UHGV virus genome: UHGV-0142298
From: a virus
Direction: 5' to 3' (one strand)
Length of the DNA stretch: 37,340 bases
Position 1 is the stretch's first letter, and each line of letters opens with the position of its first letter. The position numbers were made by a program, and so were the translations under genes. The notes below the pieces were generated by a model. The model worked only from the letters and a program-made list of their open reading frames with translations. It was not told where the DNA came from and made no database searches. Below are positions 1 through 17,486 of this stretch, piece by piece.

Positions 1-43
1 GCTTCCGGCAACTCGTGAGTAAAAAGATTCGGTATCAGAAGAG

Positions 44-1120
44 GTGAGTATGGCTAACGCCTGGCTCAGATTATGGCATGACATGCCAAATGACCCTAAG
101 TGGCGAACAATTGCCAGGGTGTCAGGGCAGCCAATTGCAACAGTGATGGCAGTGTATATCCACCTCCTGGTGAGCGCGTCACGAAATGTCACGCGAGGTC
201 ACATTGATGTCACGACAGAAGATTTGGCAAGTGCGCTCGACGTGACAGAAGAGGTAATTGATTCAATTTTGCAGACGATGCAGGGGCGGGTACTTGATGG
301 TGATTTAATCACTGGATGGGAAAAACGCCAGGTGCTGAAAGAGGACAACGGTAATATTTCGCAAACCGCAAAATCTCCGGCAGAGCGCAAGAGGGCGCAG
401 CGAGAGAGGGAAAGAAAGCGGGAACAAAATGGCGATTGTCACGGCGAGTCACGAAATGTCACGCACATGTCACGACGAGTCACGACAGATAAAGATACAG
501 ATAAAGATACAGATCAAGAAGATCAAAACACTATGGTCCATGGCGTAAAAAACGCCGCGAACCAGGCAGGGGATGTTCAGACCGTCAATCTTGGTCAGCC
601 AGCAGGCACGACACCGGAAGCCGATTCAGCGTATGCGCTGAAAGCCGATTCGGGCGCTGTGCAGCAGGTGATGACCGCAAGGCAGGAGCAATCACACCAA
701 CTTCAGCAGCCTGAAGCCGATTCCGCCATTCAGCGGGAAGCCGATCGGGTAGTCCCGGAAAACACCGGGCAGCCTGTGGGACGAGTGGATTATCCTGATG
801 TGTTCGAACAGGTCTGGCGGGAATACCCGTTGCGTGCCGGGGCAAACCCGAAGAAATCCGCTTTCAGTGCCTGGAAGGCCAGATTACGCGAGGGGGTGCC
901 ACCAGAGGCCATGCTGGATGGCGTGAGGCGTTACGCAAGATACCTGGCGGCTACCGGGAAAACGGGAACGGAATTTGTTCAGCGAGCGACGACGTTTTTT
1001 GGACCGGACCGGAATTTTGAAAACCCCTGGTTGCTCCCGGTAAGCGGTACGAACAACCAGCGTTGTGTGAATCATATTTCTGAACCGGATACCGAAATTC
1101 CACCGGGCTTCAGGGGGTAA
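44..1120 (+). CDS. Phage replication initiator / replisome organizer (O-like), origin iterons inside the gene
   Basis: 358-aa ORF at the left of the late arm; two clusters of GTCACG motifs at about 10-bp spacing lie inside the coding sequence, as ori does inside lambda O; acidic low-complexity linker (DKDTDKDTDQEDQ). Domain family recalled, not searched. Confidence 0.6.
   Translation: MSMANAWLRLWHDMPNDPKWRTIARVSGQPIATVMAVYIHLLVSASRNVTRGHIDVTTEDLASALDVTEEVIDSILQTMQGRVLDGDLITGWEKRQVLKEDNGNISQTAKSPAERKRAQRERERKREQNGDCHGESRNVTHMSRRVTTDKDTDKDTDQEDQNTMVHGVKNAANQAGDVQTVNLGQPAGTTPEADSAYALKADSGAVQQVMTARQEQSHQLQQPEADSAIQREADRVVPENTGQPVGRVDYPDVFEQVWREYPLRAGANPKKSAFSAWKARLREGVPPEAMLDGVRRYARYLAATGKTGTEFVQRATTFFGPDRNFENPWLLPVSGTNNQRCVNHISEPDTEIPPGFRG
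178..214. repeat. Iteron cluster 1 (4 x GTCAC[G/A] at about 10-bp spacing), candidate ori
   Basis: GTCACG at 178, 188, 209 and GTCACA at 198; the 15-mer TCACGAAATGTCACG recurs at 448-462. Confidence 0.55.
438..484. repeat. Iteron cluster 2 (5 x GTCACG at about 10-bp spacing), candidate ori
   Basis: GTCACG at 438, 448, 458, 469, 479, followed by a tandem GATAAAGATACA repeat at 488-512. Confidence 0.55.
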
Positions 1121-1160
1121 GTGTGTATTTCAGGTCATGAGGTAATTTTCAGGAGGACTT

Positions 1161-1586
1161 GTGGCAAAAGTTTTTACACAAGAAGAGCGAGAAAAAATTA
1201 AGGGGCAGGTTGTTGAACTTGTACGTCTGAGTGGTCGCGAGACGTTACGGGCTCTGGAGGCTAAAACCGGTGCATCAAGGTATTACATAAGCACTCTCGC
1301 CAGAGAGCTGGTTGCCAGCGGCGATGTATACAACTCTGGTTACGGATTATTCCCGTCTGAACAGGCTCGTAAGGACTGGCAAAATGCCCGCAAAAAACTC
1401 TCAAGGGCAAAGCTGAAGAAAAAAACATCTGTGGTTGATCCGGACCTTATCTGGTCATTACCTGACGGAGAAATACGTCGCTACGACAGTCGTCTAAACA
1501 TAATCTGTCGCGAGTGCCGGAAGAGCGAAGTTATGCAGCGCATACTGGCATTTTATCAGGGAAATGTTTGGTATTTATTGAAATGA
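1161..1586 (+). CDS. Hypothetical basic protein in the replication module (GTG start)
   Basis: 141-aa ORF beginning at GTG 1161 with AGGAGG 4 nt upstream (1152-1157); occupies the slot where a helicase loader would normally sit but is too small and has no Walker motif. Confidence 0.4.
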   Translation: MAKVFTQEEREKIKGQVVELVRLSGRETLRALEAKTGASRYYISTLARELVASGDVYNSGYGLFPSEQARKDWQNARKKLSRAKLKKKTSVVDPDLIWSLPDGEIRRYDSRLNIICRECRKSEVMQRILAFYQGNVWYLLK

Positions 1587-1826
1587 CGAGATTAAAGAGC
1601 ATTAGTTCAGATATTAATTGACACTTCGGTTGCATAAGACTAGAACTAGTGTGATTGGCATCTTTGTACCAAAAACGGACATTACAGTGTATGGTTAATT
1701 CTGCCTGTCAAATAACTTACATTCATCAAATGATCGAAATTATGACTTAGCTCAACAATTAGGTTTAGCATGGGTCATATGACTAGAGTGTAGCAACTTT
1801 CTGCTATAATTTAATAAGGATAAAAA

Positions 1827-2054
1827 ATGCCAGCTTATGCTAATAAAGGCGGTAATTCGGGTATAGTGTTTTATGAGATTACTCCAGATGCTATCACAGT
1901 ACAGTTTAAAGATGGATGGAAATACGTTTACGATTCTACAAAACCAGGGGCTTCAACGGTCTCTAGGATGAAAGAGTTAGCCCAGGCTGGGCATGGGCTA
2001 AATAGTTTTATTAGTAGTGTGGTTAAGAAAAATTTCTCACGTAAATACCTTTAA
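1827..2054 (+). CDS. Small KTSC-like domain protein (cargo gene)
   Basis: 75-aa ORF in an AT-rich island; TATAAT at 1805-1810 upstream; sequence style (FYEITPDAITVQFKDGWKYVY) recalls KTSC-domain proteins. Confidence 0.45.
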   Translation: MPAYANKGGNSGIVFYEITPDAITVQFKDGWKYVYDSTKPGASTVSRMKELAQAGHGLNSFISSVVKKNFSRKYL

Positions 2055-2207
2055 TTTTAATTGAGGGTGGGAAGGACTATCACCCTCATAATTCTTCACC
2101 ATTCAATCAAGAGCAATTCAAGGTGATTTGCTCTGTACATAGTCGGTTAGTTAGCACTTCGTAATTTATTGAATAGAAGGCTTTTGGAACAGTATCTTCA
2201 CTCGTGC

Positions 2208-2456
2208 TTATCGCCCAGCAGATTTAGCAAGAATAGTCTCGAGCATTTCTGGTACGTTGCCTTTAGCATTGATAGTTGCTGTTCGGTAAGCTAGTTGATT
2301 TTTTGAGAGATTGATTCCTGTAAGTGCTTCAATTTCGTTGCAGGCCTTACCCCATTCTACCCAGTTTTCAGACAAAAAAGATTCAAGATGATCCGCAAAT
2401 ATAGCAATATCATTAGTAACTGTTGCAGCTGGAATATAGACTATGCGAAAAGCCAT
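2208..2456 (-). CDS. Hypothetical protein
   Basis: 82-aa minus-strand ORF in the AT-rich island; no recognised motif; weak RBS. Confidence 0.25.
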   Translation of the reverse strand: MAFRIVYIPAATVTNDIAIFADHLESFLSENWVEWGKACNEIEALTGINLSKNQLAYRTATINAKGNVPEMLETILAKSAGR

Positions 2457-3079
2457 TGGTTGACTACTTCAATGTATCCTGTATCAACAATGAAAATGTC
2501 CGTTCTTCGCTCACAGAATTAGTGCGACAGCTTCGCACCAAGAGCTGACATTGTAATATCCGACAGGCTATTGCCTGTCAGTTAACAGTTACGTGTTATA
2601 AAAGGTCAGGCGGGATCCTGACTAGGTGTGTTTAAAGAAGTGCTGGTGGTGAGCGGGTGTTGTGTCCAATTTCCACAGAAAAAAATCTGAGAAACTATAC
2701 CCAATAGTTGTATTGAATCACTGACGAGACAGCCTCATATTTATCAGGACTGGTGTACTTCCAATTCAGGAGGTTGTCGTGCTGGTTCTCAAATGTGCGC
2801 TAGCTATTGCGGCTGTAATGGCAATTTATTGTCTTGCTGTTGTTCTTACGGATCGCCTTTCTGATTGATTTTATATTGGCGAGGTGACGTGAGTTAAGTA
2901 GAATTGCTGCGGGTGCTTGAGGCTATCTGCCTCAGGCATGAACACCAACGGCAGATAGAGAAAAGCCCCAGTTAACATTACGCGTCCTGCAAGACGCTTA
3001 ACATTAATCTGAGGCCAATTTCATGCTAGACACATGTAGGTTAGCCTCTTACGTGCCGGAAGGCAAGGAGAAGCAGGCT

Positions 3080-3235
3080 ATGAAGCAGCAAAAGGCGATG
3101 TTAATCGCCCTGATCGTCATCTGTTTAACCGTCATAGTGACGGCACTGGTAACGAGGAAAGACCTCTGCGAGGTACGAATCCGAACCGGCCAGACGGAGG
3201 TCGCTGTCTTCACAGCTTACGAACCTGAGGAGTAA
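3080..3235 (+). CDS. hokD: Hok/Gef-family membrane toxin (type I toxin)
   Basis: 51-aa product MKQQKAMLIALIVICLTVIVTALVTRKDLCEVRIRTGQTEVAVFTAYEPEE has the Hok signature (TM helix, LTRK.LCE.R, EVAAF..YE); the ORF track extends it upstream to 3023 (mok-like leader frame); intrinsic terminator follows. Confidence 0.8.
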   Translation: MKQQKAMLIALIVICLTVIVTALVTRKDLCEVRIRTGQTEVAVFTAYEPEE

Positions 3236-3299
3236 GAGACTAGGCGGGGGAGAAATCCCTCGCCACCTCTGATGAGTCAGGCATCCTCAATGCACCCGC

Positions 3300-3326
3300 G
3301 CTTAACCCGCTTCGGCGGGTTTTTCT
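3300..3326 (+). terminator. Intrinsic terminator downstream of hok
   Basis: AACCCGC-TTCG-GCGGGTT hairpin followed by a T-run. Confidence 0.6.
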
Positions 3327-3336
3327 AGCATCTACC

Positions 3337-3376
3337 TGGTTGACAAAGTCGATGTTAAATGGAAATATGGTTGACA
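3337..3376 (+). promoter_or_regulatory. Direct repeat TGGTTGACA x2 (31 bp apart) overlapping -35-like TTGACA boxes; candidate promoter/operator of the 3402-5158 operon
   Basis: TGGTTGACA at 3337-3345 and 3368-3376, immediately upstream of the ATG at 3402. Confidence 0.35.
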
Positions 3377-3401
3377 CCAAAACAACAAGGATATTACGGT
3401 C

Positions 3402-4016
3402 ATGCAGAATTTATCTCAACAGTTGTTAGAAGCATATGACAAGGAGTGCCGCAAAGAGCTTTCGATCGCGTTAGCACAGGCTTATCTTCATTCGCATATG
3501 AAGGCAAAAGAGTTTGGTTCTTTTTGGGCTCAAGCACAGTCATATTTGCGCTGGTTTTATGCCGATGCATTGCTTGAGAATGCGGCTAAGCGTGTGGGGC
3601 TGGATTTTGAAGTCGGTAGCAATGCTGCTAAAAATTGTAAACACATTGCGATTCACTCGAACAACTGGAAAATGACGGCACATCATTTATCGGGTAATGC
3701 GCCACTTCCTAAGCAGGCATTGTATAGAGCTGTTTACGCTAATCAAAATTATGAATTGAATTTTGGGGATGAAAATGCCGACTCCCTGGATGGGAGAGCG
3801 TCTGGTGGACATGTTTATATGTTACATGATGGCAGTAATCAGCACTTGTCCAAACTGAATTTAACTGTTCCTTCTTCGGATAATTACGGGATTCTTTATA
3901 CTGAGTCTTTACCAATTATGACGATGGTAGAAGTTGAAGCAGAAAATGTGGATTCTGAGATTGAAGATAAAATCAAGATTCTTACCGAACAAATAATTAA
4001 ATCACAGCAATCATGA
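3402..4016 (+). CDS. Hypothetical protein, first gene of a two-gene cassette (candidate effector/partner of the HTH-peptidase)
   Basis: 204-aa ORF; its stop overlaps the next start in ATGA (4013-4016), implying translational coupling; no recognisable domain or TM segment. Confidence 0.55.
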   Translation: MQNLSQQLLEAYDKECRKELSIALAQAYLHSHMKAKEFGSFWAQAQSYLRWFYADALLENAAKRVGLDFEVGSNAAKNCKHIAIHSNNWKMTAHHLSGNAPLPKQALYRAVYANQNYELNFGDENADSLDGRASGGHVYMLHDGSNQHLSKLNLTVPSSDNYGILYTESLPIMTMVEVEAENVDSEIEDKIKILTEQIIKSQQS

Positions 4017-5158
4017 GCATGAATATCGCACAAACACCATTTACTGATAAATCGTTTAATCCTCGTCGCCTTGAGGAGGCAAGAGAGGCAAAAGGGTTGA
4101 CGATGGCTGAACTTGCCAGAGTGCTCAATATTTCAAGACAAGCTATTTCGTCATTTGAGAAGGGGTTGAAGTCTCCCTCTGCTGATACACTTTCTGCAAT
4201 AGCCAAGGTGTTAGGATTTCCAGAACGATTTTTCTTAGCCTCCAGTGCTTCTCCATCTCTGGAGGGGGCGATTCATTTTAGAAGTCGTTCAACTGCGACC
4301 AAAAAGGCTCGAGTTACAGGGAAAACACGTGGGCGTTGGGCGGCATTAATATTGGATGAATGTCTAAAATATGCTCAATTACCAGATGTGGTTCTGCCTG
4401 AATTCGATATTATTGATTTTGAGGTTCTGTCTCTATCTGATATTGAGGATATGTCCACCCAATTAAGGCGTTTTTGGGGGTTAGGTGATGGTCCAATACT
4501 CAATTTAACTAGACTTGTTGAAAATAAAGGAATCGTGGTTTCTCATTTACCTTCTGGTGAGAAAGTTGATGCCTTTTCGTTCTGGCATAATGGGCGGCCT
4601 TTAATTATGTTAGATAGCTCGAAGACGGCTGTTCGCATGCGATTTAGTCTTGCTCATGAACTTGGCCATTTAATTATGCATAGGGCAGTGGAGGATGACT
4701 ACCTGAATGATAAAGAATTATTCGACCTGGTGGAGTTGCAGGCCGATTATTTTGCCTCCAGCTTTTTAATGCCAGCCACCACTTTCGGGCGTGAATTTTA
4801 TAGTCCAAATTTATCAGCGTTAGAACGATTAAAACTACGTTGGATTACATCTATCGGTAGTATTGCCATGAGGAGTCATAGCCTTAAGTTAATCAGCGAT
4901 AATCAGAAAAGCTATATATTTAAGCAATTAGCGCCATTCCATCGTAGGGAGCCGTTAGATGATGCAATCCCAAAAGAAGAGCCTGAGTTACTTAATAAGT
5001 TACTTTTACTTCTTGATAAGCATTCAATCATAAAGGTAACTGAGTTAACTGATATCTTTGCTCTTCCCTTAAATGAGTTATCTGCAATTACACGATTTAA
5101 AGAATCAGATATGATTCATTCTGACAATGTTATTTCATTTACCATAAAACAAAAATAA
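4013..5158 (+). CDS. HTH-XRE DNA-binding domain fused to an ImmA/IrrE-type (M78-like) zinc metallopeptidase
   Basis: N-terminal HTH (LTMAELARVLNISRQAISSFEKG); central HEXXH motif in SLAHELGHLIMH with a downstream acidic/aromatic segment (ELQADYFASSFLMP) typical of ImmA/IrrE peptidases. Confidence 0.75.
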   Translation: MSMNIAQTPFTDKSFNPRRLEEAREAKGLTMAELARVLNISRQAISSFEKGLKSPSADTLSAIAKVLGFPERFFLASSASPSLEGAIHFRSRSTATKKARVTGKTRGRWAALILDECLKYAQLPDVVLPEFDIIDFEVLSLSDIEDMSTQLRRFWGLGDGPILNLTRLVENKGIVVSHLPSGEKVDAFSFWHNGRPLIMLDSSKTAVRMRFSLAHELGHLIMHRAVEDDYLNDKELFDLVELQADYFASSFLMPATTFGREFYSPNLSALERLKLRWITSIGSIAMRSHSLKLISDNQKSYIFKQLAPFHRREPLDDAIPKEEPELLNKLLLLLDKHSIIKVTELTDIFALPLNELSAITRFKESDMIHSDNVISFTIKQK

Positions 5159-5167
5159 TTCTCATTC

Positions 5168-5195
5168 ATACCCGCCTCGGCGGGTTTTTGTTTTA
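5168..5195 (+). terminator. Intrinsic terminator after the HTH-peptidase gene
   Basis: CCCGCC-TC-GGCGGG hairpin plus TTTTTGTTTT; same hairpin family as the terminator after hok. Confidence 0.6.
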
Positions 5196-5505
5196 CGTAT
5201 TCTGGTTTACAATCCACAGGCCAGCCTGAACAACTGGCACCTGCTGCGCCAGCAGAGACAACCGATGGCGCACGATACCAAATTACACAATTCTGATGAT
5301 TCTGCCGTCTTTGCCAGCAGGCACGGGCGGCGCTCTCACGCATTTAAATCTGATTGGTACCAGCATCCCCCATGCACTGAAGAACAGGCCGAATGGCTGA
5401 TTCATTCTTACCGCAGGCGCGGGTTCGAGGTTAAGAAAGCTCTCAGTCTCGACTATCGGCACTGGATAATCTCTGTCAGGCTGCCTTATTCCGAACGCCC
5501 ACCAC

Positions 5506-6153
5506 GTGCGTCCCGCACTTTCCAGCAACGGATCTGGAGGTAACGTGCGGGTATTACTTAGACCTGTTCTGGTGCCAGAGCTTGGGCTGGTGGTCCTTAA
5601 ACTAGGCCGTGAATCCATGCCGGTATTCCACAATACCCGGGTACTGGTGGAGCCGGAACCGAAAAGCATGCGTAATCTGCCGTCCGGGGTCGTTCCTGCC
5701 GTTCGCCAGCCGCTGGTGGAAGACAAAACATTGCTGCCGTTTTTCAGTAACGCACGGGTGATTCGTGCTGCTGGTGGTGCTGGTGCATTGTCTGACTGGC
5801 TGTTGCGCCATATTAAATCCTGCCAGTGGCCGCACGGCGATTATCATCACAGCGAAACCGTCATTCACCGTTATGGTACCGGCGCAATGGTGTTGTGCTG
5901 GCACTGCGACAACCAACTGCGTGACCAGACATCCGAATCACTCGAGCAACTTGCTCATCAAAACCTGTCAGCATGGATGATTGACGTCATCGGTCACGCA
6001 ATAAGCGGTACGCAGGAGCGTGAATTATCTCTGGCTGAATTATCCTGGTGGGCGCTCCGCAATCAGGTGGCGGACGCGCTACCGGAAGCGGTATTACGTC
6101 GTTCGCTGGGATTACCAGCGGAAAATTCATACTATATTAGGAATAGTCCATAA
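5506..6153 (+). CDS. Hypothetical Cys/His-rich protein in the position of a late-gene regulator (possible Q-like antiterminator); start uncertain
   Basis: 215-aa ORF from GTG 5506 (alternative ATG 5620); contains HGDYHH...CWHCDNQ; a second frame (5265-5543) overlaps upstream, so a frameshifted or longer gene is possible. Confidence 0.3.
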   Translation: MRPALSSNGSGGNVRVLLRPVLVPELGLVVLKLGRESMPVFHNTRVLVEPEPKSMRNLPSGVVPAVRQPLVEDKTLLPFFSNARVIRAAGGAGALSDWLLRHIKSCQWPHGDYHHSETVIHRYGTGAMVLCWHCDNQLRDQTSESLEQLAHQNLSAWMIDVIGHAISGTQERELSLAELSWWALRNQVADALPEAVLRRSLGLPAENSYYIRNSP

Positions 6154-6243
6154 CAGAAAAATTGTCAGTGATGACGTCAGAAAGGCAATTTATTCCGTGC
6201 ACTACACAGTTTATGTGTTAATGAATTAGTCAAGGGGGAGGAT

Positions 6244-7203
6244 ATGATAAAAAAACCTGTGATTGGAATCAGCGGTTGTTTGGCCGGTTCTGCTGTTCGT
6301 TTTGATGGTGGTCACAAAAGAGCTGACTTTTTAATGGACAAATTAGTGGAATGGGTAACATTCAGACCAGTATGTCCGGAAATGGCTATAGGGCTGCCAG
6401 TTCCGCGTCCTGCTCTACGTCTTGTGCGCTCGAAGCAAGGAAATATACGGATGTGTTTCAGCCACGACCAGAATGAGGATGTGACAGAGAGAATGACAGA
6501 GTTTAGTCGTTCTTATATGCACAAATTAAAGGATGTATCGGGGTTTGTGGTTTGTGCTAAATCTCCCAGCTGTGGCATGGAGCGCGTGCGTGTCTATGAT
6601 GAAAATGGTAATCGAGGTCGTAAAGATGGAGTGGGACTATTTACGAGCACTTTGATGGAAAAGTTTTCCTGGCTACCGGTTGAAGAGGATGGGCGATTAC
6701 ATGATCCAGTGCTTCGTGAGAATTTTGTTGAAAGAGTTTTTGCTTTGCATGAGCTCAATCACCTTTACAAGGAGAAATTATCAAGAAGAGAGTTATTAGC
6801 TTTTCATAGTCGTTATAAGCTTCAGTTGTTGGCGCATAGTCAGGCAGGCTATAAAGATATGGGACCATTTGTGGCTGCAATACACGAGTGGGCGGACCTT
6901 GAATCATACTTTGAGGTGTATCGTGATAAGCTGATGGCGATTCTCAGAAAACCTGCATCACGTAAAAATCACACGAATGTGCTGATGCATATACAGGGGT
7001 ATTTTAGTAATTACTTAAGTACACGCCAGCGTAAAGAGTTGACCGAGGTTATACTTAACTATCGCTTTGGCACATTGCCTCTTCTTGCGCCGTTGACTCT
7101 GCTGAAGCATTATCTGGGTGAGTATCCTAATGATTACTTGCTTACACAGAATTACTTCGATCCCTATCCGGAAGAACTGGCTCTAAGACTGATGGTGAAT
7201 TAA
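6244..7203 (+). CDS. DUF523/DUF1722-like fusion protein (TudS-like thiouracil desulfidase family candidate)
   Basis: 319-aa ORF with RBS GGGGGAGG; N-terminus KPVIGISGCLAGSAVRFDGGHK resembles the DUF523 Cys-containing signature; family assignment is from memory. Confidence 0.6.
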   Translation: MIKKPVIGISGCLAGSAVRFDGGHKRADFLMDKLVEWVTFRPVCPEMAIGLPVPRPALRLVRSKQGNIRMCFSHDQNEDVTERMTEFSRSYMHKLKDVSGFVVCAKSPSCGMERVRVYDENGNRGRKDGVGLFTSTLMEKFSWLPVEEDGRLHDPVLRENFVERVFALHELNHLYKEKLSRRELLAFHSRYKLQLLAHSQAGYKDMGPFVAAIHEWADLESYFEVYRDKLMAILRKPASRKNHTNVLMHIQGYFSNYLSTRQRKELTEVILNYRFGTLPLLAPLTLLKHYLGEYPNDYLLTQNYFDPYPEELALRLMVN

Positions 7204-7600
7204 CTGTATGCGATATCATCTGAAAGTGATGAGTTCCTGTATGCAGGATATTTACAATCGTAAAAACTACACTATGATACCCATAGTGTCAGTTTGTATA
7301 AAAATCCTGTTCACGCTGAAGAAAACATTGAGATGCAATTTAATGTTGGTAAACATACCAGCCCCAAAAGATTTTATTCAATCTGTTTTTATATGAAGAT
7401 ATTTCAAGTGAATATTAAGAGTATATAATATTATTATTGCACGCAGCTATTATAATATAACAGATTAGTTTAATGATTTGTTTTTTGTGAGTTAAACACA
7501 TGGTTTTATAGTTGTGATGCAATGAGATTTTCCTTATTGTTGAACTGGCGAATATTGATTTTCCACCTATACTTACCTGGTGTAACCCCAGTGATATCAG

Positions 7601-8323
7601 GTGGATAATATGCCATACATATGTTCTGTCATTTTGGTGTTGAACTCGTTTGGTGTCCGAATTGGTAAAGAAGATATTTTGTTTAAAAAAGGAAGTGCTG
7701 TCCTCATCGAATACAATTTAAAAGATCTTTTTTCGTCAAATACAGATCATCTAATGATCGTAGATGTTGAGGAGAAAACAGTTAATGATTTCTTTAAAAA
7801 CTACACACTCTCACCTTTTTCTGTAAGAAGGTTTTATCCGTCATACTTGATAGTAGAATGTGAAGATTTTTCATTGTTAAGGAACTTGGTTGCATGCTTG
7901 AATTGTGATAGCAAAACCGTGGATGTAGTTAGAAATCAAATATCACTTGCATGTCTTGCTGTCTTATCTTCAGAGAAAATAGTGCAAAGTTTTTTGTTCG
8001 GAAGTCTTAATAGCTTAGGTTGTAAAGTTAAGGCTATTATTCACTCGGATATCTCAGCGTCATGGAGACTTTGTGATATATCTTCAAGATTATATATGAG
8101 CGAGAGTTTGTTAAAAAGAAAATTAAAAGACGAAGGATTATCGTTTAGTAAATTAATTCTTGAAGAACGAATGATGATGGCGCAAAGATTATTGATCTAC
8201 AGTAACCATACTGTCGGCAAGGTGGCGGGAATATGCGGGTATGACAATGCATCATATTTTGTAAGTGTTTTTAGAGGATATTTTGGTGTGCCTCCGCACC
8301 AATATTTATCAAGATTTTCTTAG
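7601..8323 (+). CDS. AraC-family transcriptional regulator (cargo gene)
   Basis: 240-aa ORF in a very AT-rich island; C-terminal AraC-type HTH (VGKVAGICGYDNASYFVSVFRGYFGVPPHQY). Confidence 0.75.
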   Translation: MDNMPYICSVILVLNSFGVRIGKEDILFKKGSAVLIEYNLKDLFSSNTDHLMIVDVEEKTVNDFFKNYTLSPFSVRRFYPSYLIVECEDFSLLRNLVACLNCDSKTVDVVRNQISLACLAVLSSEKIVQSFLFGSLNSLGCKVKAIIHSDISASWRLCDISSRLYMSESLLKRKLKDEGLSFSKLILEERMMMAQRLLIYSNHTVGKVAGICGYDNASYFVSVFRGYFGVPPHQYLSRFS

Positions 8324-8389
8324 AAGATATGATGTGATGGCATTTTATAAAGTTATTTTTTGAAGTGTAAGATTATACGATATTTTTAG

Positions 8390-8425
8390 CTACGCCAGAA
8401 TAATTGCTGGCGTTTTTCTTTTTGA
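8390..8425 (+). terminator. Intrinsic terminator upstream of the lysis cassette (tR'-like position)
   Basis: ACGCCAG-AATAATTG-CTGGCGT hairpin followed by TTTTTCTTTTT. Confidence 0.55.
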
Positions 8426-8513
8426 ATAGATGTTCGGGCCTTACGCTAATGTAACTTCTTTCCTTCTTCGAACCAAACCGTGTACACCATCCGTTATCTG
8501 CGGAGGTGAGGCT

Positions 8514-8729
8514 ATGAAATCCATGGATAAGTTAACAACGGGCATCGCCTACAGCACCTCTGCAGGCAGTGCTGGCTACTGGTTTTTACAGTTGCTCGAT
8601 AAAGTCACGCCCTCACAGTGGGCGGCAATAGGTGTATTGGGTAGTCTGGTATTTGGCATGCTGACGTATCTGACAAACCTTTATTTCAAGATTAAAGAAG
8701 ACAGGCGTAAGGTTGCGAGAAGAGAGTAA
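8514..8729 (+). CDS. essQ: Class II holin (phage 21 S-type pinholin-like)
   Basis: 71 aa from [10 protein letters not shown] with two TM segments and a charged C-terminus ([13 protein letters not shown]); directly upstream of a SAR endolysin. Confidence 0.75.
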
Positions 8730-8733
8730 TCCA

Positions 8734-9285
8734 ATGACTCAAGACTATGAACTGGTTGTGAAAGGAGTTCGCAATTTTGAGAATAAAGTGGCGGTAACTG
8801 TAGCCTTACGGGACAAAAAACACTTTGACGGTGAAATTTTTGACCTGGACATCTCGCTGGACCGTGTTGAAGGTGCCGCGCTGGAGTTTTATGAGGCAGC
8901 AGCCAGAAGGAGCATCAGACAGGTCTTCCTGGATGTTGCTGCCGGGTTATGTGAAGGGGATGAGCAGTCGCCGGAAAAGCGCCCCATAATTTTAGAGGCG
9001 CAGAATGTGTGGATAACCTACAAAGGAAAGCTACCGGGAAGAATTACTGGTTCTCTGAAGACGCCACCGACGGCATTGCGGTCAGAAAAAGATGATATTG
9101 AATCGCCCATTGAAAAACTGGAGGGCAGCGTCGCTGATCTGAATAAAAAATTGTCGGTGCTGATTCCTTCTGAAGATGAAAAAAAACGCCGCGATGAGCA
9201 GTTTGCGGCGTTTTACGATTATTGCATTGAAGTTACTCGCAGGAATTTTGTGAAGATTTTTGAGGAGGGTAAATCTCTTCAGTAA
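8734..9285 (+). CDS. Hypothetical protein inserted between holin and endolysin (YdfR/DUF1327-like N-terminus, extended C-terminus)
   Basis: ORF from MTQDYELVVKGVRNFENK; sits where ydfR lies in Qin-type lysis cassettes but is about 80 aa longer; start may instead be 8713. Confidence 0.45.
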   Translation: MTQDYELVVKGVRNFENKVAVTVALRDKKHFDGEIFDLDISLDRVEGAALEFYEAAARRSIRQVFLDVAAGLCEGDEQSPEKRPIILEAQNVWITYKGKLPGRITGSLKTPPTALRSEKDDIESPIEKLEGSVADLNKKLSVLIPSEDEKKRRDEQFAAFYDYCIEVTRRNFVKIFEEGKSLQ

Positions 9286-9493
9286 GCTTATTGGCGGACG
9301 CTGCAATTAATTCAGGAAGGTCCGCAAGGTCATCTGTCAGTGGATATGATGAAAAATCGGCGGCAGTTCTGTTAAGAAGCGCTTTAACTAATTCCTTTTC
9401 CTTCTCCGGCAACAAGTTGATTAGAGCTACGACTGCTTGCCTGAGTGCGATTAAATCAGCAAAAGTTTGTTTAGGTAGATTTGTGTAATCCAT
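9233..9493 (-). CDS. Hypothetical small protein, convergent with the 8734-9285 gene
   Basis: 86-aa minus-strand ORF inside the lysis cassette, overlapping the 3' end of the upstream gene; no motif; could be spurious. Confidence 0.2.
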   Translation of the reverse strand: MDYTNLPKQTFADLIALRQAVVALINLLPEKEKELVKALLNRTAADFSSYPLTDDLADLPELIAASANKLTEEIYPPQKSSQNSCE

Positions 9494-9606
9494 AGTCGCC
9501 TCTGTGTTTATCAGATTGACATCCTCCTCCCGCCAGTGCCCATCACTGGTGAGGTAAGATTTAACATATCCGGGGATTTGAAGCCGATAAATCCTGATAA
9601 ATATCC

Positions 9607-10634
<1,028 letters not shown>

Positions 10635-10997
10635 ATTAATATTAAATCGGATTATTTTTAGCGCTGAATGTGAAATTTAAATAAAAAGGACTCTTCCATG
10701 AGTCAAAATCCTTGAAATCTTAAGGGTAAGATAAAAGGTCATTAGACAGAATGACACGTTTTATTAATAAATAAAGCTATTGTTTCATTCGTGTGTTTTT
10801 CTTTACAAAAGTAATCCTTGCTATGGTTGGTTAATCATGCGTTAATGGTGTTCTGGTTTGTTACAAAATTATCTGAAGCAGTCATTGTTATAATTTTATT
10901 ATTTGTACCTCTTGAGATTTCCTTGTTGGTTTTTCTCTCTGATATTTTTTTTCGGACCATTCTGCCCAAGGGCTAACTTCTTCAAAAGGTAATAATG

Positions 10998-11210
10998 ATG
11001 TCTAACAAAATGACTGGTTTAGTGAAATGGTTTAACCCTGAAAAAGGTTTTGGTTTCATCACGCCGAAAGATGGTAGCAAAGATGTGTTTGTCCATTTCT
11101 CAGCTATTCAGAGCAACGATTTCAAAACGTTAACTGAGAATCAGGAAGTCGAATTTGGTATTGAGAACGGACCTAAAGGCCCCGCGGCTGTTCATGTTGT
11201 GGCACTTTGA
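10998..11210 (+). CDS. cspI: Cold-shock protein (CspA family)
   Basis: [23 protein letters not shown]...VFVHFSAIQ contains the RNP1/RNP2 motifs of CspA-family proteins; long AT-rich leader upstream (10640-10995). Confidence 0.8.
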
Positions 11211-11409
11211 GGTAGATAATATTACAAACCATATTCACTTTAGATGCCCGTGTTGCCATGGTTCTCAGTATAGAACATCATCTTTTGATGTTTCTGACAG
11301 GAATCCTTTCGGGGCAAAATGTATCTTTTGTAAATCAATGATGATTACATTTGATAATATTTCACAATACTTAAATGTTAGCCGTCTATCGTTAGATTTA
11401 AGAAAGTGA
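11194..11409 (+). CDS. Possible small zinc-ribbon protein
   Basis: ORF with CPCCHG...CIFC spacing, ending just before a strong terminator; start unclear and overlaps the cspI 3' end. Confidence 0.2.
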
Positions 11410-11411
11410 AA

Positions 11412-11440
11412 ATGAAGGCTCCTTCGGGAGCTTTTTTTCT
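11412..11440 (+). terminator. Intrinsic terminator
   Basis: GAAGGCTCC-TTCG-GGAGCTT hairpin followed by a T7 run. Confidence 0.65.
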
Positions 11441-11481
11441 TAGTGTCTAGTCGATGGATACTCACATAATACGGTAACATT

Positions 11482-11712
11482 ATGAAAAAAATAATAGTTT
11501 TTTTTAACTCTGAACCAGCAATGGTAGTGCCAGTGATGACCGGAGTTAACACCATCATGCGTGAATATCCAAATGGCGAAACAACACACCTCACTGTAAT
11601 GGCTGCAGGGTTTCCATCTCTGACCGGAGATCATAAAGTCATTTATGTAGCAGCGGATCGACATGTAACTTCAGAAGAAATTCTGGAAGCAGCAATGAGA
11701 CTCTTGAATTGA
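11482..11712 (+). CDS. Hypothetical protein
   Basis: 76-aa ORF in the AT-rich post-lysis accessory region; no motif. Confidence 0.35.
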   Translation: MKKIIVFFNSEPAMVVPVMTGVNTIMREYPNGETTHLTVMAAGFPSLTGDHKVIYVAADRHVTSEEILEAAMRLLN

Positions 11713-11884
11713 TTTGATTCTAATGCATTGATAATAAATGATAATCATCTTTATCTGTTTGTGTGAAATTTAGACCGTCGTATGTTGATTATTGCGATGT
11801 TTCATCTTATCTTTTATACGTTTGCTCCATATAATTGACACTACTGTGTACCAGGAAAGTCATAACAGACTAAAAGAGGAAATG

Positions 11885-12058
11885 ATGAACATTGAAGAGT
11901 TAAAAACAAAAACAGAAGCAGATATTTCTGAATATATAACAAAAAAAATCATTGAGCTTAAGAAAAAGACCGGGAAAGAAGTTACCAGTATCCAGTTTAC
12001 TGCACGGGAAAAAATGACTGGTCTTGAAAGCTATGATATCAAGATTGATTTAATCTAG
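11885..12058 (+). CDS. gnsB: Gns-family small protein (GnsA/GnsB-like)
   Basis: 57-aa product MNIEELKTKTEADISEYITKKIIELKKKTGKEVTSIQFTAREKMTGLESYDIKIDLI matches the remembered Gns pattern; RBS AGAGGA upstream. Confidence 0.5.
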   Translation: MNIEELKTKTEADISEYITKKIIELKKKTGKEVTSIQFTAREKMTGLESYDIKIDLI

Positions 12059-12351
12059 TCTGTTTAGTATTAGCATCAATTTCTCATCAGATGCTATTCA
12101 ACAATACAAATTACCCATAAACCTCGTTTTTACGGGGTTTTGTTATATTTAAACATTACCGAATAGGTATAAATCTCGATTGTCGATGGTATTGGTTGTG
12201 TGACAATACCTAGTCTTTCCGGTATGCCTGATGAGAATACAAACGACAGATTATGTAAGGGAAACGCGCTGAATCTTTAACTCTTTCATGCTGAGTGATT
12301 TGACGTTATATTTTTAGCCGTAAGTGAAGAGCAAACGCATGGAGCGACAAA

Positions 12352-12558
12352 ATGCATAAAGATCAATACACTGATGCCCCCTCCCAGGAGCAGGTTCGTG
12401 TAAAAACTATGCTTAATAGCACCATTTCGATGGGTTACCCGGATGTTGTAATTGCATGTATAGAACATCAAGTGTCTCTGGAAGCATTCAGGGCAATTGA
12501 GGCCGCGTTAGTAAAGCACGATAAGAATACGAAGGATTATTCCCTGGTGGTTGACTGA
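12352..12558 (+). CDS. Hypothetical small protein (YbcW/YnfN-like prophage family)
   Basis: 68-aa ORF with RBS GGAG; pattern [20 protein letters not shown]...LVKHD recalled from small lambdoid prophage genes near the lysis/terminase junction. Confidence 0.45.
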
Positions 12559-12914
12559 TCACCATAACTGCTAACCATTCTGACCATTTCACAAGTGACA
12601 GAGTCAATATCGTATTCTGTCACTGTCAGGCTAATACAGCAATGCAATTCAACTACAGCAATGCCTCGTATTTAGGTGAATTTACAATATCGTCCAGTTC
12701 GGATGCCGGCTGCATTTCTGAAGATAAGGCATTTCGGTTCTCGTATTTTCCCCTCATGCTCGTCAGTCCTGCGCGTAGTAAGAAACAGGACACTCACACT
12801 AATTTGTGTGGGCATGCTGTGATGTCCTTCTGAATTATCCCCATGCCATTATGTAAAGCTCTGTTACAGATGCTCGTCACGGTTGTCAGGCTGTCGGGTC
12901 CTCCCAGTGGGGGG

Positions 12915-12950
12915 CCCTGCCACGGGGCGGGAGCGTCGCGGAAAAAGGCT
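12915..12950. other. Candidate cos site (cosN-like GC-rich core upstream of terminase)
   Basis: CACGGGGCGGGAGCGTCGCGG resembles the lambda cosN context (ACGGGGCGGCGACCTCGCGGG); AT-rich cosB-like tract follows up to the terS start. Confidence 0.3.
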
Positions 12951-13108
12951 AGTTTTTGCATTTCCATGGCGGCGGCAGCATGTTTGGTAATTTATTGATA
13001 ATTAAAAGTTATTTCCCTTTTCACCTGTACAATATTTTTTTCTTCCTGTCATTAGACCAGTTTGCAATTAATTGAAATATATAAATAAACCTGATTTTCA
13101 CCTGCCAG

Positions 13109-13648
13109 ATGGAGTTGCTTATGTCAAATGTGAGCGGGATCGGTGATGCTTATTACTGGAGTGTTTTTAAAATCGCCGAGGCCTTTGGGCTTCACCGGGA
13201 CACAGTAAAAAAACGGCTCCTCGCGGCCAACACTCCTGTGGCTGCGACTGTCAGGGGGAACCCCGTTTACGCCCTGCAGCATGTCGGGCCCGCCCTGTTT
13301 AGTGTGAAGCATGAGGCAGCAGACTCTGTTCATGATCCATCCCGTATGGAGCCGAAAGAGAGAAAGGACTGGTACCAGTCTGAAAATGAAAGGATCAAGC
13401 TGGAAAAGGAGCAGCGAAAACTCATCCCAGTTGATGAAGTAGTCATCGTCTATTCGTCCATGAGAAAGGCTGTCGTCCAGGTTCTGGAGACAATTCCGGA
13501 TGTTCTTGAACGCGATTGCGCTCTGACTCCTCAGGCCGTCGGCGTTGTACAGCAGGCCATTGATGACCTGCGATACACTCTTCAGGAAAAATCCTACGAG
13601 GCTTGTGCTGCTGAATTAATTCCTGATGAGGAAGGAGAGAGTCTCTAG
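13109..13648 (+). CDS. Terminase small subunit
   Basis: 179-aa ORF immediately upstream of the large terminase, downstream of the cos-like sequence. Confidence 0.6.
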   Translation: MELLMSNVSGIGDAYYWSVFKIAEAFGLHRDTVKKRLLAANTPVAATVRGNPVYALQHVGPALFSVKHEAADSVHDPSRMEPKERKDWYQSENERIKLEKEQRKLIPVDEVVIVYSSMRKAVVQVLETIPDVLERDCALTPQAVGVVQQAIDDLRYTLQEKSYEACAAELIPDEEGESL

Positions 13649-13656
13649 GAGGAATA

Positions 13657-15756
13657 ATGGGTTTTTCATCAGCCCGAAATTTGGGAAGGGACATATCGGC
13701 AGGATTTTCCCCACCACGTCGCATGCCGATTTCGGAGGCTGTTAAAAAATTCATGCGTGTTCCCAAGGGGGCTGGTAACTCGGTGCCATGGGATCCTGAA
13801 CTGACACCCTACATCATTGAGCCCATGAACTGCCTGGCATCGCGTGAATACGATGCGGTGATTTTTGTTGGTCCTGCGCGAACAGGGAAGACCATTGGTC
13901 TGATCGATGGATGGATTGTCTATACCATCGTTTGCGATCCTTCGGACATGCTCGTTGTGCAGATGACCGAAGATAAGGCCCGCGAGCATTCTAAAAAGCG
14001 CCTCGACAGAACGTTCAGAAGCAGTGCGGCGGTAAAGAAAAGAATGAGTCCACGTCGTAACGACAATAATGTCCATGATAAGACGTTCAGGGATGGCTCG
14101 TTCCTTAAAATTGGTTGGCCCTCGGTCAACATTATGTCGTCGTCGGATTACCGGTTTGTCGCCTTAACCGATTACGACCGTTTTCCGGAGAATATCGACA
14201 GCGAGGGTGATGGTTTCTCCCTGGCCTCAAAACGTACCACCACATTTATGTCCGCCGGGATGACTCTGGTGGAGAGCTCGCCGGGACGTGACATCTGCGA
14301 CAGCAAATGGCGACGTAAGTCGCCTCATGAAGCGCCACCGACGACTGGTATTCTTTCCCTTTACAATCGTGGTGACCGCCGCCGCTGGTACTGGCCATGT
14401 CCGCACTGCGGTGAATATTTTCAGCCAGCTATGGATGCCATGACCGGCTACCGTAATGAACCGGATCCCTTTAAAGCCAGTGAGGCGGCGTATCTACTTT
14501 GCCCGCACTGCAGCGGCATTATCACTGCGGAGAAAAAGCGTGAGCTCAATAGTGCAGGAGTCTGGTTGCGTGAAGGTCAGGTCATTGATCGTAACGGCAA
14601 CGTTTCCGGTGAACCGCGCCGCTCCCGTATCGCCAGTTTCTGGATGGAAGGGCCAGCTGCTGCGTATCAGACCTGGGCGCAACTGGTTTACAAATTACTG
14701 ACTGCAGAACAGGAGTATGAAGCGACAGGAAGCGAAGAAACACTCAGGGCGGTTATCAACACCGACTGGGGATTGCCTTATCTTCCTCGTGCCAGCATGG
14801 AGCAACGAAAAAGTGAACTGCTTGAGCAGCGGGCAGAGCCAGTTCCTTCCTGCAGTGTGCCGGATGGCGTTAATTTCCTTGTGGCGACAGTGGATGTGCA
14901 GGCGGGACGTCATCGCCGTTTTGTGGTTCAGGTAACTGGCTATGGCAGTCGTGGCGAACGCTGGATTATTGATCGTTACAATATCACGCAGTCATTGCGC
15001 AGTGACTGCGACGGGGAGAGCCAGCGAATTGATCCGGCCAGCTATCCGGAAGACTGGGATGTCCTGCTGACGGATGTTTTTCATAAAAGCTGGCCGCTGG
15101 CCTCCGATCCTTCTCAACAAATGCGACTGATGGCAATGGCGGTGGACTCCGGCGGTGAAGACGGGGTCACTGATAATGCCTATAAATTCTGGCGTCGTTG
15201 CCGTCGTGATGGCCTTGGTAAACGTATTTACCTGTTTAAGGGCGACAGCATCCGGCGCGCAAAACTGATCACCCGTACATTCCCTGATAACACCGGACGA
15301 ACGGGCCGACGGGCGCAGGCCGCAGGTGATGTGCCGCTCTGGCTTCTTCAGACGGATGCACTGAAAGACCGGGTGAATAACGCGTTATGGCGTGACTCGC
15401 CAGGTCCCGGCTATGTGCATTTCCCTGACTGGCTGGGGAGCTGGTTTTACGACGAACTGACGTATGAAGAGCGGAGCAGTGACGGGAAATGGAGTAAGCC
15501 GGGTCGCGGTGCCAACGAAGCTTTTGACCTGATGGTGTATGCCGAGGCTCTGGTCATTCTGCATGGATACGAAAAGATCCGCTGGCCGGATGCACCGGAG
15601 TGGGCGAGCCGGGAAACCTGGCTGGAGTGTGTCCCGGACAGTACCGAACCGTCACCCTCACCGGAACCGGTATCCACGCCTGTTAAAAAACAAAAACGGA
15701 AGAAAACAGTAACTGACGATGTTAACCCCTGGCTGACTTCCGGAGGATGGTTATGA
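13657..15756 (+). CDS. Terminase large subunit (lambda gpA family)
   Basis: 699 aa; Walker A-like VGPARTGKT; size and position match gpA. Confidence 0.85.
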   Translation: MGFSSARNLGRDISAGFSPPRRMPISEAVKKFMRVPKGAGNSVPWDPELTPYIIEPMNCLASREYDAVIFVGPARTGKTIGLIDGWIVYTIVCDPSDMLVVQMTEDKAREHSKKRLDRTFRSSAAVKKRMSPRRNDNNVHDKTFRDGSFLKIGWPSVNIMSSSDYRFVALTDYDRFPENIDSEGDGFSLASKRTTTFMSAGMTLVESSPGRDICDSKWRRKSPHEAPPTTGILSLYNRGDRRRWYWPCPHCGEYFQPAMDAMTGYRNEPDPFKASEAAYLLCPHCSGIITAEKKRELNSAGVWLREGQVIDRNGNVSGEPRRSRIASFWMEGPAAAYQTWAQLVYKLLTAEQEYEATGSEETLRAVINTDWGLPYLPRASMEQRKSELLEQRAEPVPSCSVPDGVNFLVATVDVQAGRHRRFVVQVTGYGSRGERWIIDRYNITQSLRSDCDGESQRIDPASYPEDWDVLLTDVFHKSWPLASDPSQQMRLMAMAVDSGGEDGVTDNAYKFWRRCRRDGLGKRIYLFKGDSIRRAKLITRTFPDNTGRTGRRAQAAGDVPLWLLQTDALKDRVNNALWRDSPGPGYVHFPDWLGSWFYDELTYEERSSDGKWSKPGRGANEAFDLMVYAEALVILHGYEKIRWPDAPEWASRETWLECVPDSTEPSPSPEPVSTPVKKQKRKKTVTDDVNPWLTSGGWL

Positions 15757-15965
15757 ACCAGAATGATATCGAAGCCATGATTCAGCGTTATACGGAAGCT
15801 GAAATGGCGGTGCTGGACGGAAAATCCGTCACCTTTAATGGTCAGCAGATGACCATGGAAAACTTATCTGAGATCCGGCAGGGACGGCAGGAGTGGGAGC
15901 GCCGCCTTGCGGCTCTGATTACACGACGACGGGGGCATCCCGGGTACCGGCTGGCGAGGTTCTGA
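15753..15965 (+). CDS. Head-tail joining protein (gpW-like)
   Basis: About 70 aa; start overlaps the terminase stop (ATGA), RBS GGAGG; C-terminal RRRG.PG motif as in lambda W. Confidence 0.65.
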   Translation: MNQNDIEAMIQRYTEAEMAVLDGKSVTFNGQQMTMENLSEIRQGRQEWERRLAALITRRRGHPGYRLARF

Positions 15966-17473: not shown

Positions 17474-17486
17474 TTCCTGGTTCAGG

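Follow-up and report, generated by a model that had tools for sequence, protein, structure and literature searches.

A probable tRNA 4-thiouridine desulfidase (RudS) in a mobile cargo module of Escherichia coli lambdoid phages, in a prophage copy that lacks Q

We analyzed UHGV virus genome UHGV-0142298 (37,340 nucleotides; "the window") and found that the gene at 6244..7203 (+ strand) very likely encodes RudS, a tRNA 4-thiouridine (s4U) desulfidase. This assignment rests on the protein's domains, its functional residues, its predicted fold, and orthology. For the locus as a whole, we consider it highly probable that a functional-looking RudS is carried in a mobile phage cargo module and would lower the s4U content of tRNA in the host, and that the Q gene of the module has been deleted from this copy.

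The gene is a single uninterrupted open reading frame of 319 codons plus a stop codon, and it begins with ATG. The first-pass annotation had described a 319-amino-acid gene with a strong ribosome binding site, and the open reading frame, the RefSeq annotation, and the upstream DNA all agree with this. A 100% identical copy in E. coli Ecol_316 is annotated by RefSeq with the same coordinates (WP_001587086.1), under the label "YbgA family protein". Just upstream of the gene, we read a purine-rich Shine-Dalgarno region from the sequence, AAGGGGGAGG (6232..6241, + strand). Its GGAGG core ends 2 nt from the start codon, or, in the AAGGGGG register, the spacing is 5 nt. This region is largely kept between rudS alleles.

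The protein has two domains, both of which match Pfam models far beyond chance and above the Pfam cutoffs. Amino acids 7–149 (6262..6690, + strand) form the TudS catalytic domain, or PF04463 ("2-thiouracil desulfurase", formerly DUF523; E = 5.5e-40). The score is 137.1 bits, compared to a cutoff of 34.7 bits, and the alignment covers model positions 1–141 of 141. Amino acids 192–309 (6817..7170, + strand) form a DUF1722 domain (PF08349; E = 9.4e-40), with 136 bits compared to a cutoff of 22.5 bits, and with model positions 1–117 of 117 aligned. The N-terminal cysteine motif that was noticed on first reading is present as GISGC12L, VC44PE46, and KS107PS109C110G. The suggestion that this is a desulfidase-like protein related to tRNA modification was therefore correct: it belongs to the RudS family, which includes an experimentally tested phage ortholog at 92% identity.

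Fusions of TudS and DUF1722 were shown to be tRNA s4U desulfidases and were named RudS by Jamontas et al. (2024, NAR 52:10543; PMC11417400). The phage ortholog, RudS_vir, was among six RudS proteins that reduced the s4U content of E. coli tRNA by 4.7- to 26-fold when overexpressed. RudS_vir was apparently less active than the other orthologs, despite high protein levels (PMC11417400). Neither TudS alone nor YbgA alone lowered tRNA s4U (PMC11417400). In RudS_KT, from Pseudomonas putida, mutating C17, C49, C114, E51, S111, S113, or R60 abolished activity (PMC11417400). For RudS_vir and RudS_ST, the cluster ligands are listed as Cys12, Cys44, and Cys110 (PMC11417400, Table 1).

The window's protein carries the putative [4Fe-4S] ligands C12, C44, and C110, along with the catalytic residues E46, R55, S107, and S109. 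All seven of these residues are invariant among 24 close homologs, as well as in a set of 17 sequences that includes distant representatives. S239 and R240, in the DUF1722 domain, are also invariant among close homologs. They align with S243 and R244 of P0142, a proxy that shares the numbering of RudS_KT (C17/C49/C114 and C241/S243/R244). P0142 is the best proxy that we have for RudS_KT: it matches 19 of 36 published positions, and the mapping of RudS_KT positions 152–205 is approximate. The full-length domains, the 92% identity to RudS_vir, and the presence of a counterpart for every residue whose mutation inactivates RudS_KT together support the enzyme assignment.

An AlphaFold2 (AF2) model of the protein has a mean pLDDT of 77 and a pTM of 0.77; it was built from an alignment without the phage 1H12 sequence, and its confidence is low for residues 13–27, which adjoin C12. 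When the model was compared to known structures, the only significant matches were five crystal structures of TudS (including 6z92, 6z93, 6z96, and 6zw9), each with a probability of 1.00 and with target TM scores of 0.64–0.69. None of the solved structures matched by the model covers the DUF1722 half. Searching the PDB by sequence found only TudS, with a weak E-value of 1.5e-4.

Between the window's allele and the allele from phage 1H12, dN/dS is 0.13, which indicates purifying selection. The protein matches phrog_3275 from end to end (E = 5.4e-225). The RudS family is large: clustering at 50% identity leaves 6,554 representatives with E ≤ 1e-3, and 1,164 with E ≤ 1e-30. We rejected two other assignments, YbgA and stand-alone TudS. 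The YbgA equivalog model (NCBIfam NF007549) covers only amino acids 160–315, and at 190.4 bits the protein scores below its cutoff of 237 bits. In addition, YbgA is a stand-alone DUF1722 protein of about 169 amino acids, while the window's protein has 319 amino acids and an additional catalytic domain. A stand-alone TudS is a single domain of about 150–166 amino acids, not a two-domain fusion. We also found no match in PADLOC for RudS or for the AraC-like protein encoded next to it, so a role in a known defense system is not supported.

In related phages and prophages, rudS lies in a constant gene order: Q (125 amino acids, QuuD-type), a terminator-like hairpin, blc (on the − strand), rudS, a gene for an AraC-family regulator, holin, endolysin, and spanin. 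This order is shared by the phages Lambda_2E9, 1H12, and IdasGreatGrand and by prophages with different backbones. The gene is found in the genome records of phages as well (IdasGreatGrand, 1H12, and the Lambda_ev series). In E. coli, many lambdoid phages and prophages carry rudS as part of a mobile cargo module (a QuuD-type Q, blc on the − strand, rudS, and the araC-like gene), which is placed between Q and holin. In these relatives, the position between Q and holin is the slot that Stx phages use for toxin genes. The window's gene had been placed in this kind of slot, between a presumed late regulator and the lysis cassette. This is accurate for the intact relatives, but not for the window, where the Q region has been deleted. 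The upstream neighbor, which had been taken for the late regulator, is instead a truncated DUF968/YdfU gene.

Specifically, the window lacks 1,618 bp that are present in all close relatives, and the deletion junction lies at 6125..6126 (no strand). We compared the window by blastn to a prophage that retains Q (L001). Positions 1–6125 of the window correspond to 802–6926 of L001, and positions 6126–15300 correspond to 8545–17719, with 99.96–99.98% identity. The lost segment holds the last 469 nt of ydfU and all of Q (the QuuD-type antiterminator) and blc. It also holds a promoter-like site (L001 7762–7791) and a terminator-like site (L001 7889–7912), which are located where pR' and tR' would be expected, and the first 74 nt of the spacer between blc and rudS, including another promoter-like site (L001 8494–8521). 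Using tblastn against the entire window (37,340 bases), we found only noise for homologs of Q and Blc. Because Q and the sites downstream of it are deleted and no Q homolog is present, Q-dependent late transcription of rudS, the lysis genes, and the structural genes cannot operate. The window's rudS is not downstream of Q, a late promoter, or the terminator-like site, as all of these were deleted.

The truncated ydfU gene (5545..6153, + strand; DUF968/HNH-type) encodes residues 1–194 of the 349 in the full-length protein from L001, followed by 8 foreign codons. It matches phrog_96 only over positions 1–194 of 334, and it has a fragment of Pfam's DUF968; the C-terminal part that is rich in cysteine and histidine is absent from its product. 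There is no obvious microhomology at the junction. The junction was not found in 5,426 complete E. coli genomes (using a 160-nt query), in IMG/VR (using a 39-mer), or in JGI metagenomes. The window's copy is apparently a recent and unusual derivative, although the junction could instead be an assembly artifact. Given the near-identity of its flanks to a Q-positive prophage, the deletion appears to be young, and so the intact reading frame of rudS is a poor guide to whether selection acts on it in this strain.

Downstream of rudS, the module continues as it does in the relatives. The second cargo gene (7610..8323, + strand; coordinates from L001) stands between rudS and the holin gene and encodes an AraC-family regulator that resembles YdeO, GadX, and AppY (Pfam HTH_18 and HTH_AraC). 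NCBIfam's YdeO model gives it 112 bits, which is below the cutoff of 348 bits. We considered whether this regulator might be PatE, PsrA/B, or AppY, but we found no basis for identifying it as any of these, so we describe it only at the family level, as YdeO/GadX-like. The gene is flanked by a promoter-like site (7251–7278) and a terminator-like site (8392–8413). The lysis cassette begins with a class II holin of the essQ type (8514..8729, + strand; Phage_holin_2_1, E = 8.9e-34), and this gene is identical in L001, where the annotation by RefSeq agrees. Lysozyme (9607..10140, + strand) and Rz (10137..10634, + strand) follow. rudS, the araC-like gene, and these lysis genes are all in the same (+) orientation, with rudS upstream of the lysis genes. 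Unlike the slot in Stx phages, the window does not contain any tRNA genes (as checked with ARAGORN). Near rudS and in the deleted segment, searches with Rfam found nothing relevant, just sub-threshold matches that we attribute to chance. Further downstream of rudS, Rfam identifies a cspA thermoregulator.

GC content falls across this region: it is about 55% in ydfU, about 44% in rudS, and 31–33% in the AraC-family gene. This is typical of morons. A comparison of chromosomal loci suggests where part of the module came from. In Enterobacter mori, a lipocalin gene (− strand) is followed by a MerR/MlrA-like regulator (+ strand) and rudS, and phage Blc shares 79% identity with this lipocalin. Based on this arrangement and this similarity, phages probably acquired the blc-rudS pair from a light-response locus of enterobacteria (lipocalin on the − strand, MerR, and rudS), with loss of merR. 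In Citrobacter braakii, rudS follows genes for CFA synthase, DUF2878, and DUF3833.

The module is common in E. coli. Among 5,426 complete genomes, 1,064 (about 20%) contain at least 80% of rudS, and 1,011 contain at least 80% of the block from Q through blc to rudS. In Nico21(DE3), which is a derivative of BL21(DE3), only a 49-codon stump of rudS remains.

How would this enzyme act? By homology to TudS and RudS_KT, C12, C44, and C110 would hold a [4Fe-4S] cluster, whose free iron would bind the sulfur of s4U at position 8 (or 9) of the tRNA. E46, positioned by R55, S107, and S109, would then activate a water molecule, so that s4U is converted to uridine and sulfide is released. In RudS_KT, DUF1722 is the domain that binds the anticodon arm of the tRNA (PMC11417400), and the C-terminal domain of the window's protein is predicted to dock the anticodon arm as well. 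The catalytic steps are established for TudS and RudS_KT, and we infer that they hold for the window's allele. The likeliest effect in an E. coli host, where the core genome encodes YbgA alone and this stand-alone protein is inactive, would be a lower tRNA content of s4U, the near-UV chromophore.

The physiological role is much less certain than the enzymatic activity, and we infer it from a growth-delay experiment. UVA crosslinks s4U, which stalls translation, and overexpressing RudS relieves the growth delay caused by UVA (PMC11417400). One candidate role is to relieve the crosslinking of tRNA and the stringent response that UVA would induce in a host with YbgA only. Another candidate is to support late translation after induction by UV. 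That prophage RudS has a physiologically relevant function of either kind, in lysogenic conversion or in support of induction, is a tentative proposal.

Any such role depends on expression. In the intact relatives, rudS is in the sense orientation downstream of Q and the terminator-like site, so late transcription that is antiterminated by Q should include it. It might also have its own promoter in the conserved upstream region. In the window, expression would have to come either from read-through of early transcription of the truncated ydfU or from a promoter in what is left of the spacer between blc and rudS, a stretch of 118 nt (6126..6243, + strand). These 118 nt, which we examined in an alignment of six copies, may be regulatory. 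At their start is TTCATACTATATTAGGAATAGTCCA, a motif similar to the DNA between blc and merR in Enterobacter mori. The 118 nt hardly vary between alleles, even though the coding sequences of these alleles differ by 8%, and this suggests that they contain a functional element. No sigma-70-like promoter passed our scan of 6126–6243, but scans for consensus promoters provide weak evidence of absence. We also looked by hand for a MerR-type promoter with a 19-nt spacer upstream of rudS and found nothing conserved. The palindrome TGACGTCA was rejected as a regulatory site because it is absent from other alleles. With no promoter-like site in the scanned stretch, and with Q and its downstream sites gone, the window's copy may be poorly expressed.

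An extreme version of poor expression is that rudS is a silent passenger in a decaying prophage, with an intact but essentially unexpressed gene that has been kept only because the deletion is recent. We think that this is unlikely. It would fit with the loss of Q, both upstream promoter-like sites, and the terminator-like site in a deletion that is young, and with the lack of a promoter-like site in what remains upstream. The module has also decayed elsewhere: in another copy of the module (L005), blc contains an IS3 element and the araC-like gene is frameshifted, and in the BL21(DE3) derivative, an IS3 element cuts rudS at codon 49. On the other hand, with the terminator-like site gone, transcription through the truncated ydfU can enter rudS directly, and the near-invariance of the retained 118 nt argues for a functional element there. 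At the other extreme, RudS might be made late, under the control of Q, and strip s4U from the host's tRNA during lytic growth as part of host takeover, for instance to keep translation going after induction by sunlight or UV. This is possible but doubtful. The intact relatives place rudS in the sense orientation between Q (with its terminator-like site) and holin, as for stx; the gene is found in the genomes of phages and not just in prophages; and the effects of UVA on s4U and of RudS overexpression on growth (PMC11417400) are in line with such a role. But in the window, the route through Q no longer exists. Also, morons that act in lysogenic conversion would account just as well for the module's lower GC content and for the promoter and terminator that the araC-like gene appears to have.

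A different concern is the substrate. Since TudS and the catalytic domain are homologs, the main substrate might be free 4-thiouracil or a 4-thio nucleotide, in salvage or detoxification, rather than tRNA. Indeed, in a complementation assay with a pyrF deletion strain, the lag on 4-thiouracil was shorter with RudS_vir than with any other RudS protein (PMC11417400). However, none of the RudS proteins supported growth as TudS did, and none of them supported growth on 2-thiouracil (PMC11417400). Conversely, all of the RudS proteins lowered tRNA s4U, and stand-alone TudS did not (PMC11417400). The window's protein also retains DUF1722 and the residues that align with the tRNA-binding S243 and R244. 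We therefore consider a free thiopyrimidine to be a very improbable main substrate, and tRNA s4U remains our preferred substrate for the window's RudS.

Much of this is already known: the RudS family, its mechanism, and the phage ortholog at 92% identity have been published. When we searched the literature for more recent studies of phage RudS, or of s4U during phage infection, we found only reviews that cite the 2024 paper. What is modestly new is that prophages carry rudS in about 20% of complete E. coli genomes, despite what was reported (PMC11417400); that the phage blc-rudS pair is linked to a chromosomal MerR locus; and that the window's copy is without Q. The published statement is that E. 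coli does not have RudS (PMC11417400). This is true of K-12 and of Nico21(DE3), but it is not true of roughly a fifth of the complete genomes. This dependence on the strain matters for near-UV physiology, for the stringent response, and for s4U in natural isolates. There is also a consequence for annotation. The gene, which is a "YbgA family protein" in RefSeq, "hypothetical" or COG1683 in phage records, and of "unknown function" in PHROGs v4 (phrog_3275), can be named as RudS.

If prophage RudS does have a physiological function, then about a fifth of E. coli strains would gain an eraser of tRNA s4U that is missing from the core genome of the species, and their growth delay under near-UV light and their stringent response would be altered. 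In phages with Q, RudS would protect late translation under sunlight, which induces the prophage and at the same time crosslinks s4U in tRNA. In the copy without Q, rudS and the lysis genes could have come to depend on read-through from early transcription once the terminator was lost. To understand why temperate phages carry an enzyme that removes a tRNA modification, the right systems are the intact relatives, such as 1H12 and IdasGreatGrand, rather than the copy that has lost Q.

YbgA from E. coli K-12 (b0707) is a stand-alone DUF1722 protein, encoded upstream of phr, and it is 49% identical to amino acids 164–315 of the window's protein. Given this C-terminal similarity and the score below the equivalog cutoff, the name "YbgA family protein" describes only half of the protein. 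Unlike RudS, YbgA has no catalytic domain and does not affect s4U (PMC11417400). TudS (PDB 6Z92, 6Z93, and 6Z96) has the same fold and the same active-site motifs as the N-terminal domain, at about 27% identity. But TudS is a single domain of about 150–166 amino acids, and it acts on free thiouracil and 4-thio-UMP.

The mechanistic reference, RudS_KT (PP_0741), is a fusion of TudS and DUF1722, as is the window's protein. The window's protein shares about 42% identity with representatives that resemble RudS_KT in length and in residue numbers. C17, C49, C114, E51, S111, S113, R60, R24, S243, and R244 of RudS_KT all have counterparts in the window's RudS. The loop R24/Y25/N26, which contacts U45 in RudS_KT, corresponds to R19/F20/D21, so two of its residues differ. 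The Y25F variant of RudS_KT was indistinguishable from wild type (PMC11417400). The change from asparagine to aspartate could still matter, although aspartate is the majority state at the position of N26 in our 17-sequence alignment of the family. The genetic context is different as well. The gene for RudS_KT is in a light-inducible operon with LitR and PhrB (PMC11417400), while the window's rudS is phage cargo without a MerR or LitR gene.

The chromosomal RudS proteins of Enterobacterales, including RudS_ST (ORF319; STM1389 of Salmonella), are more similar. They have 319 amino acids and are 70–76% identical to the window's protein. We compared proteins from Citrobacter, Serratia, Klebsiella, Enterobacter, and Salmonella; the closest was from Citrobacter (76%), and a Salmonella protein was 73% identical. 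These chromosomal genes adjoin either a MerR-family regulator or the cluster of CFA synthase, DUF2878, and DUF3833, whereas the phage copy has no MerR gene and has an AraC-family neighbor.

The closest characterized relative is RudS_vir, which is gp66 of Escherichia phage 1H12 (YP_009909557.1). It also has 319 amino acids, and it aligns to the window's protein without gaps, with 92% identity, 97% similarity, and 24 amino-acid differences; the two genes are 91.9% identical at the DNA level. The AraC-family neighbor is more divergent, as the protein from 1H12 is just 75.7% identical to the window's. The backbones of the two phages differ: the window's is Qin-like, unlike that of 1H12, and the window has lost Q, the sites downstream of Q, and blc. 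In 1H12, the module is arranged as it is in the window's relatives (Q, blc on the − strand, rudS, the araC-like gene, and holin), and RudS_vir shares Cys12, Cys44, and Cys110 with the window's RudS.

Relative to the near-identical, Q-positive prophage locus of E. coli Ecol_316 (L001), the window lacks 1,618 bp at 6125|6126, corresponding to positions 6927-8544 of that locus. The missing stretch includes the 3' half of ydfU (a DUF968 gene), the QuuD-type antiterminator gene Q, the lipocalin gene blc, and the promoter-like and terminator-like sites that follow Q. No second copy of this junction was found in 5,426 E. coli genomes, IMG/VR, or the JGI metagenomes. Q-dependent late transcription should not be possible in the prophage as sequenced.

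The spacer between the junction and rudS (6126..6243) hardly varies across alleles, although their coding regions show 8% divergence. Both ACTAT-N7-ATAGT and TATATT, a -10-like sequence, occur in this spacer, which may serve as a regulatory element or as the divergent promoter of blc.

On the other side of rudS, there is always an AraC-family gene of the YdeO/GadX/AppY type (7610..8323, + strand; low GC content of 31-33%; flanks at 7251-7289 and 8392-8413). This gene has a promoter-like site that overlaps an inverted repeat; its terminator-like hairpin lies immediately before the holin gene. The AraC-family protein is 75.7% identical to its counterpart in phage 1H12, as compared to 92% for RudS, so by this measure the regulator is diverging much faster than its companion.

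In the nin-like region of the prophage, an overlapping gene pair on the + strand (3402..4016 and 4013..5158) matches RosmerTA, a defence/toxin-antitoxin system: the match is to RmrA (5.5e-102) for the 381-aa protein, which has HTH and M78-peptidase domains, and to RmrT (7.5e-10) for the 204-aa protein. Directly 3' of the holin gene is an ORF of the DUF1327/YdfR family (8713..9285, +); the identical region in Ecol_316 is an incomplete pseudogene according to RefSeq. Downstream of the lysis genes, the leader of cspI contains a cspA thermoregulator (Rfam; 10840..11256, +; 112.8 bits, above the gathering score), and it is followed by the Qin-type cargo genes cspI, ynfN, and gnsB, as annotated in L001.

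We also noticed a database entry from E. coli (P0002, 403 aa) in which a RudS-like sequence (98% identity across 92% of the query) is joined to a GGDEF domain (PF00990). Its source is one 19-kb contig, and it may be either a fusion or an artefact of assembly.

In the RudS study (PMC11417400), BL21(DE3) served as expression host. The BL21(DE3)-derived genome of E. coli Nico21(DE3) (NZ_CP053600.1) has the same Q-blc-rudS module, but an IS3 element has left only the first 49 codons of rudS (L007 3501-3647). Thus, BL21(DE3) appears to be RudS-free because of the IS disruption and not because it lacks the module.

Chromosomal rudS genes have other neighbors. In Citrobacter braakii, rudS is found with a CFA-synthase/DUF2878/DUF3833 cluster (L008 2234-5960), while in Enterobacter mori it is accompanied by a divergent lipocalin gene and a MerR/MlrA-like regulator (L017 3021-5960). 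The E. mori lipocalin is 79% identical to the phage Blc, which suggests that a phage captured blc-rudS and left the regulator behind.
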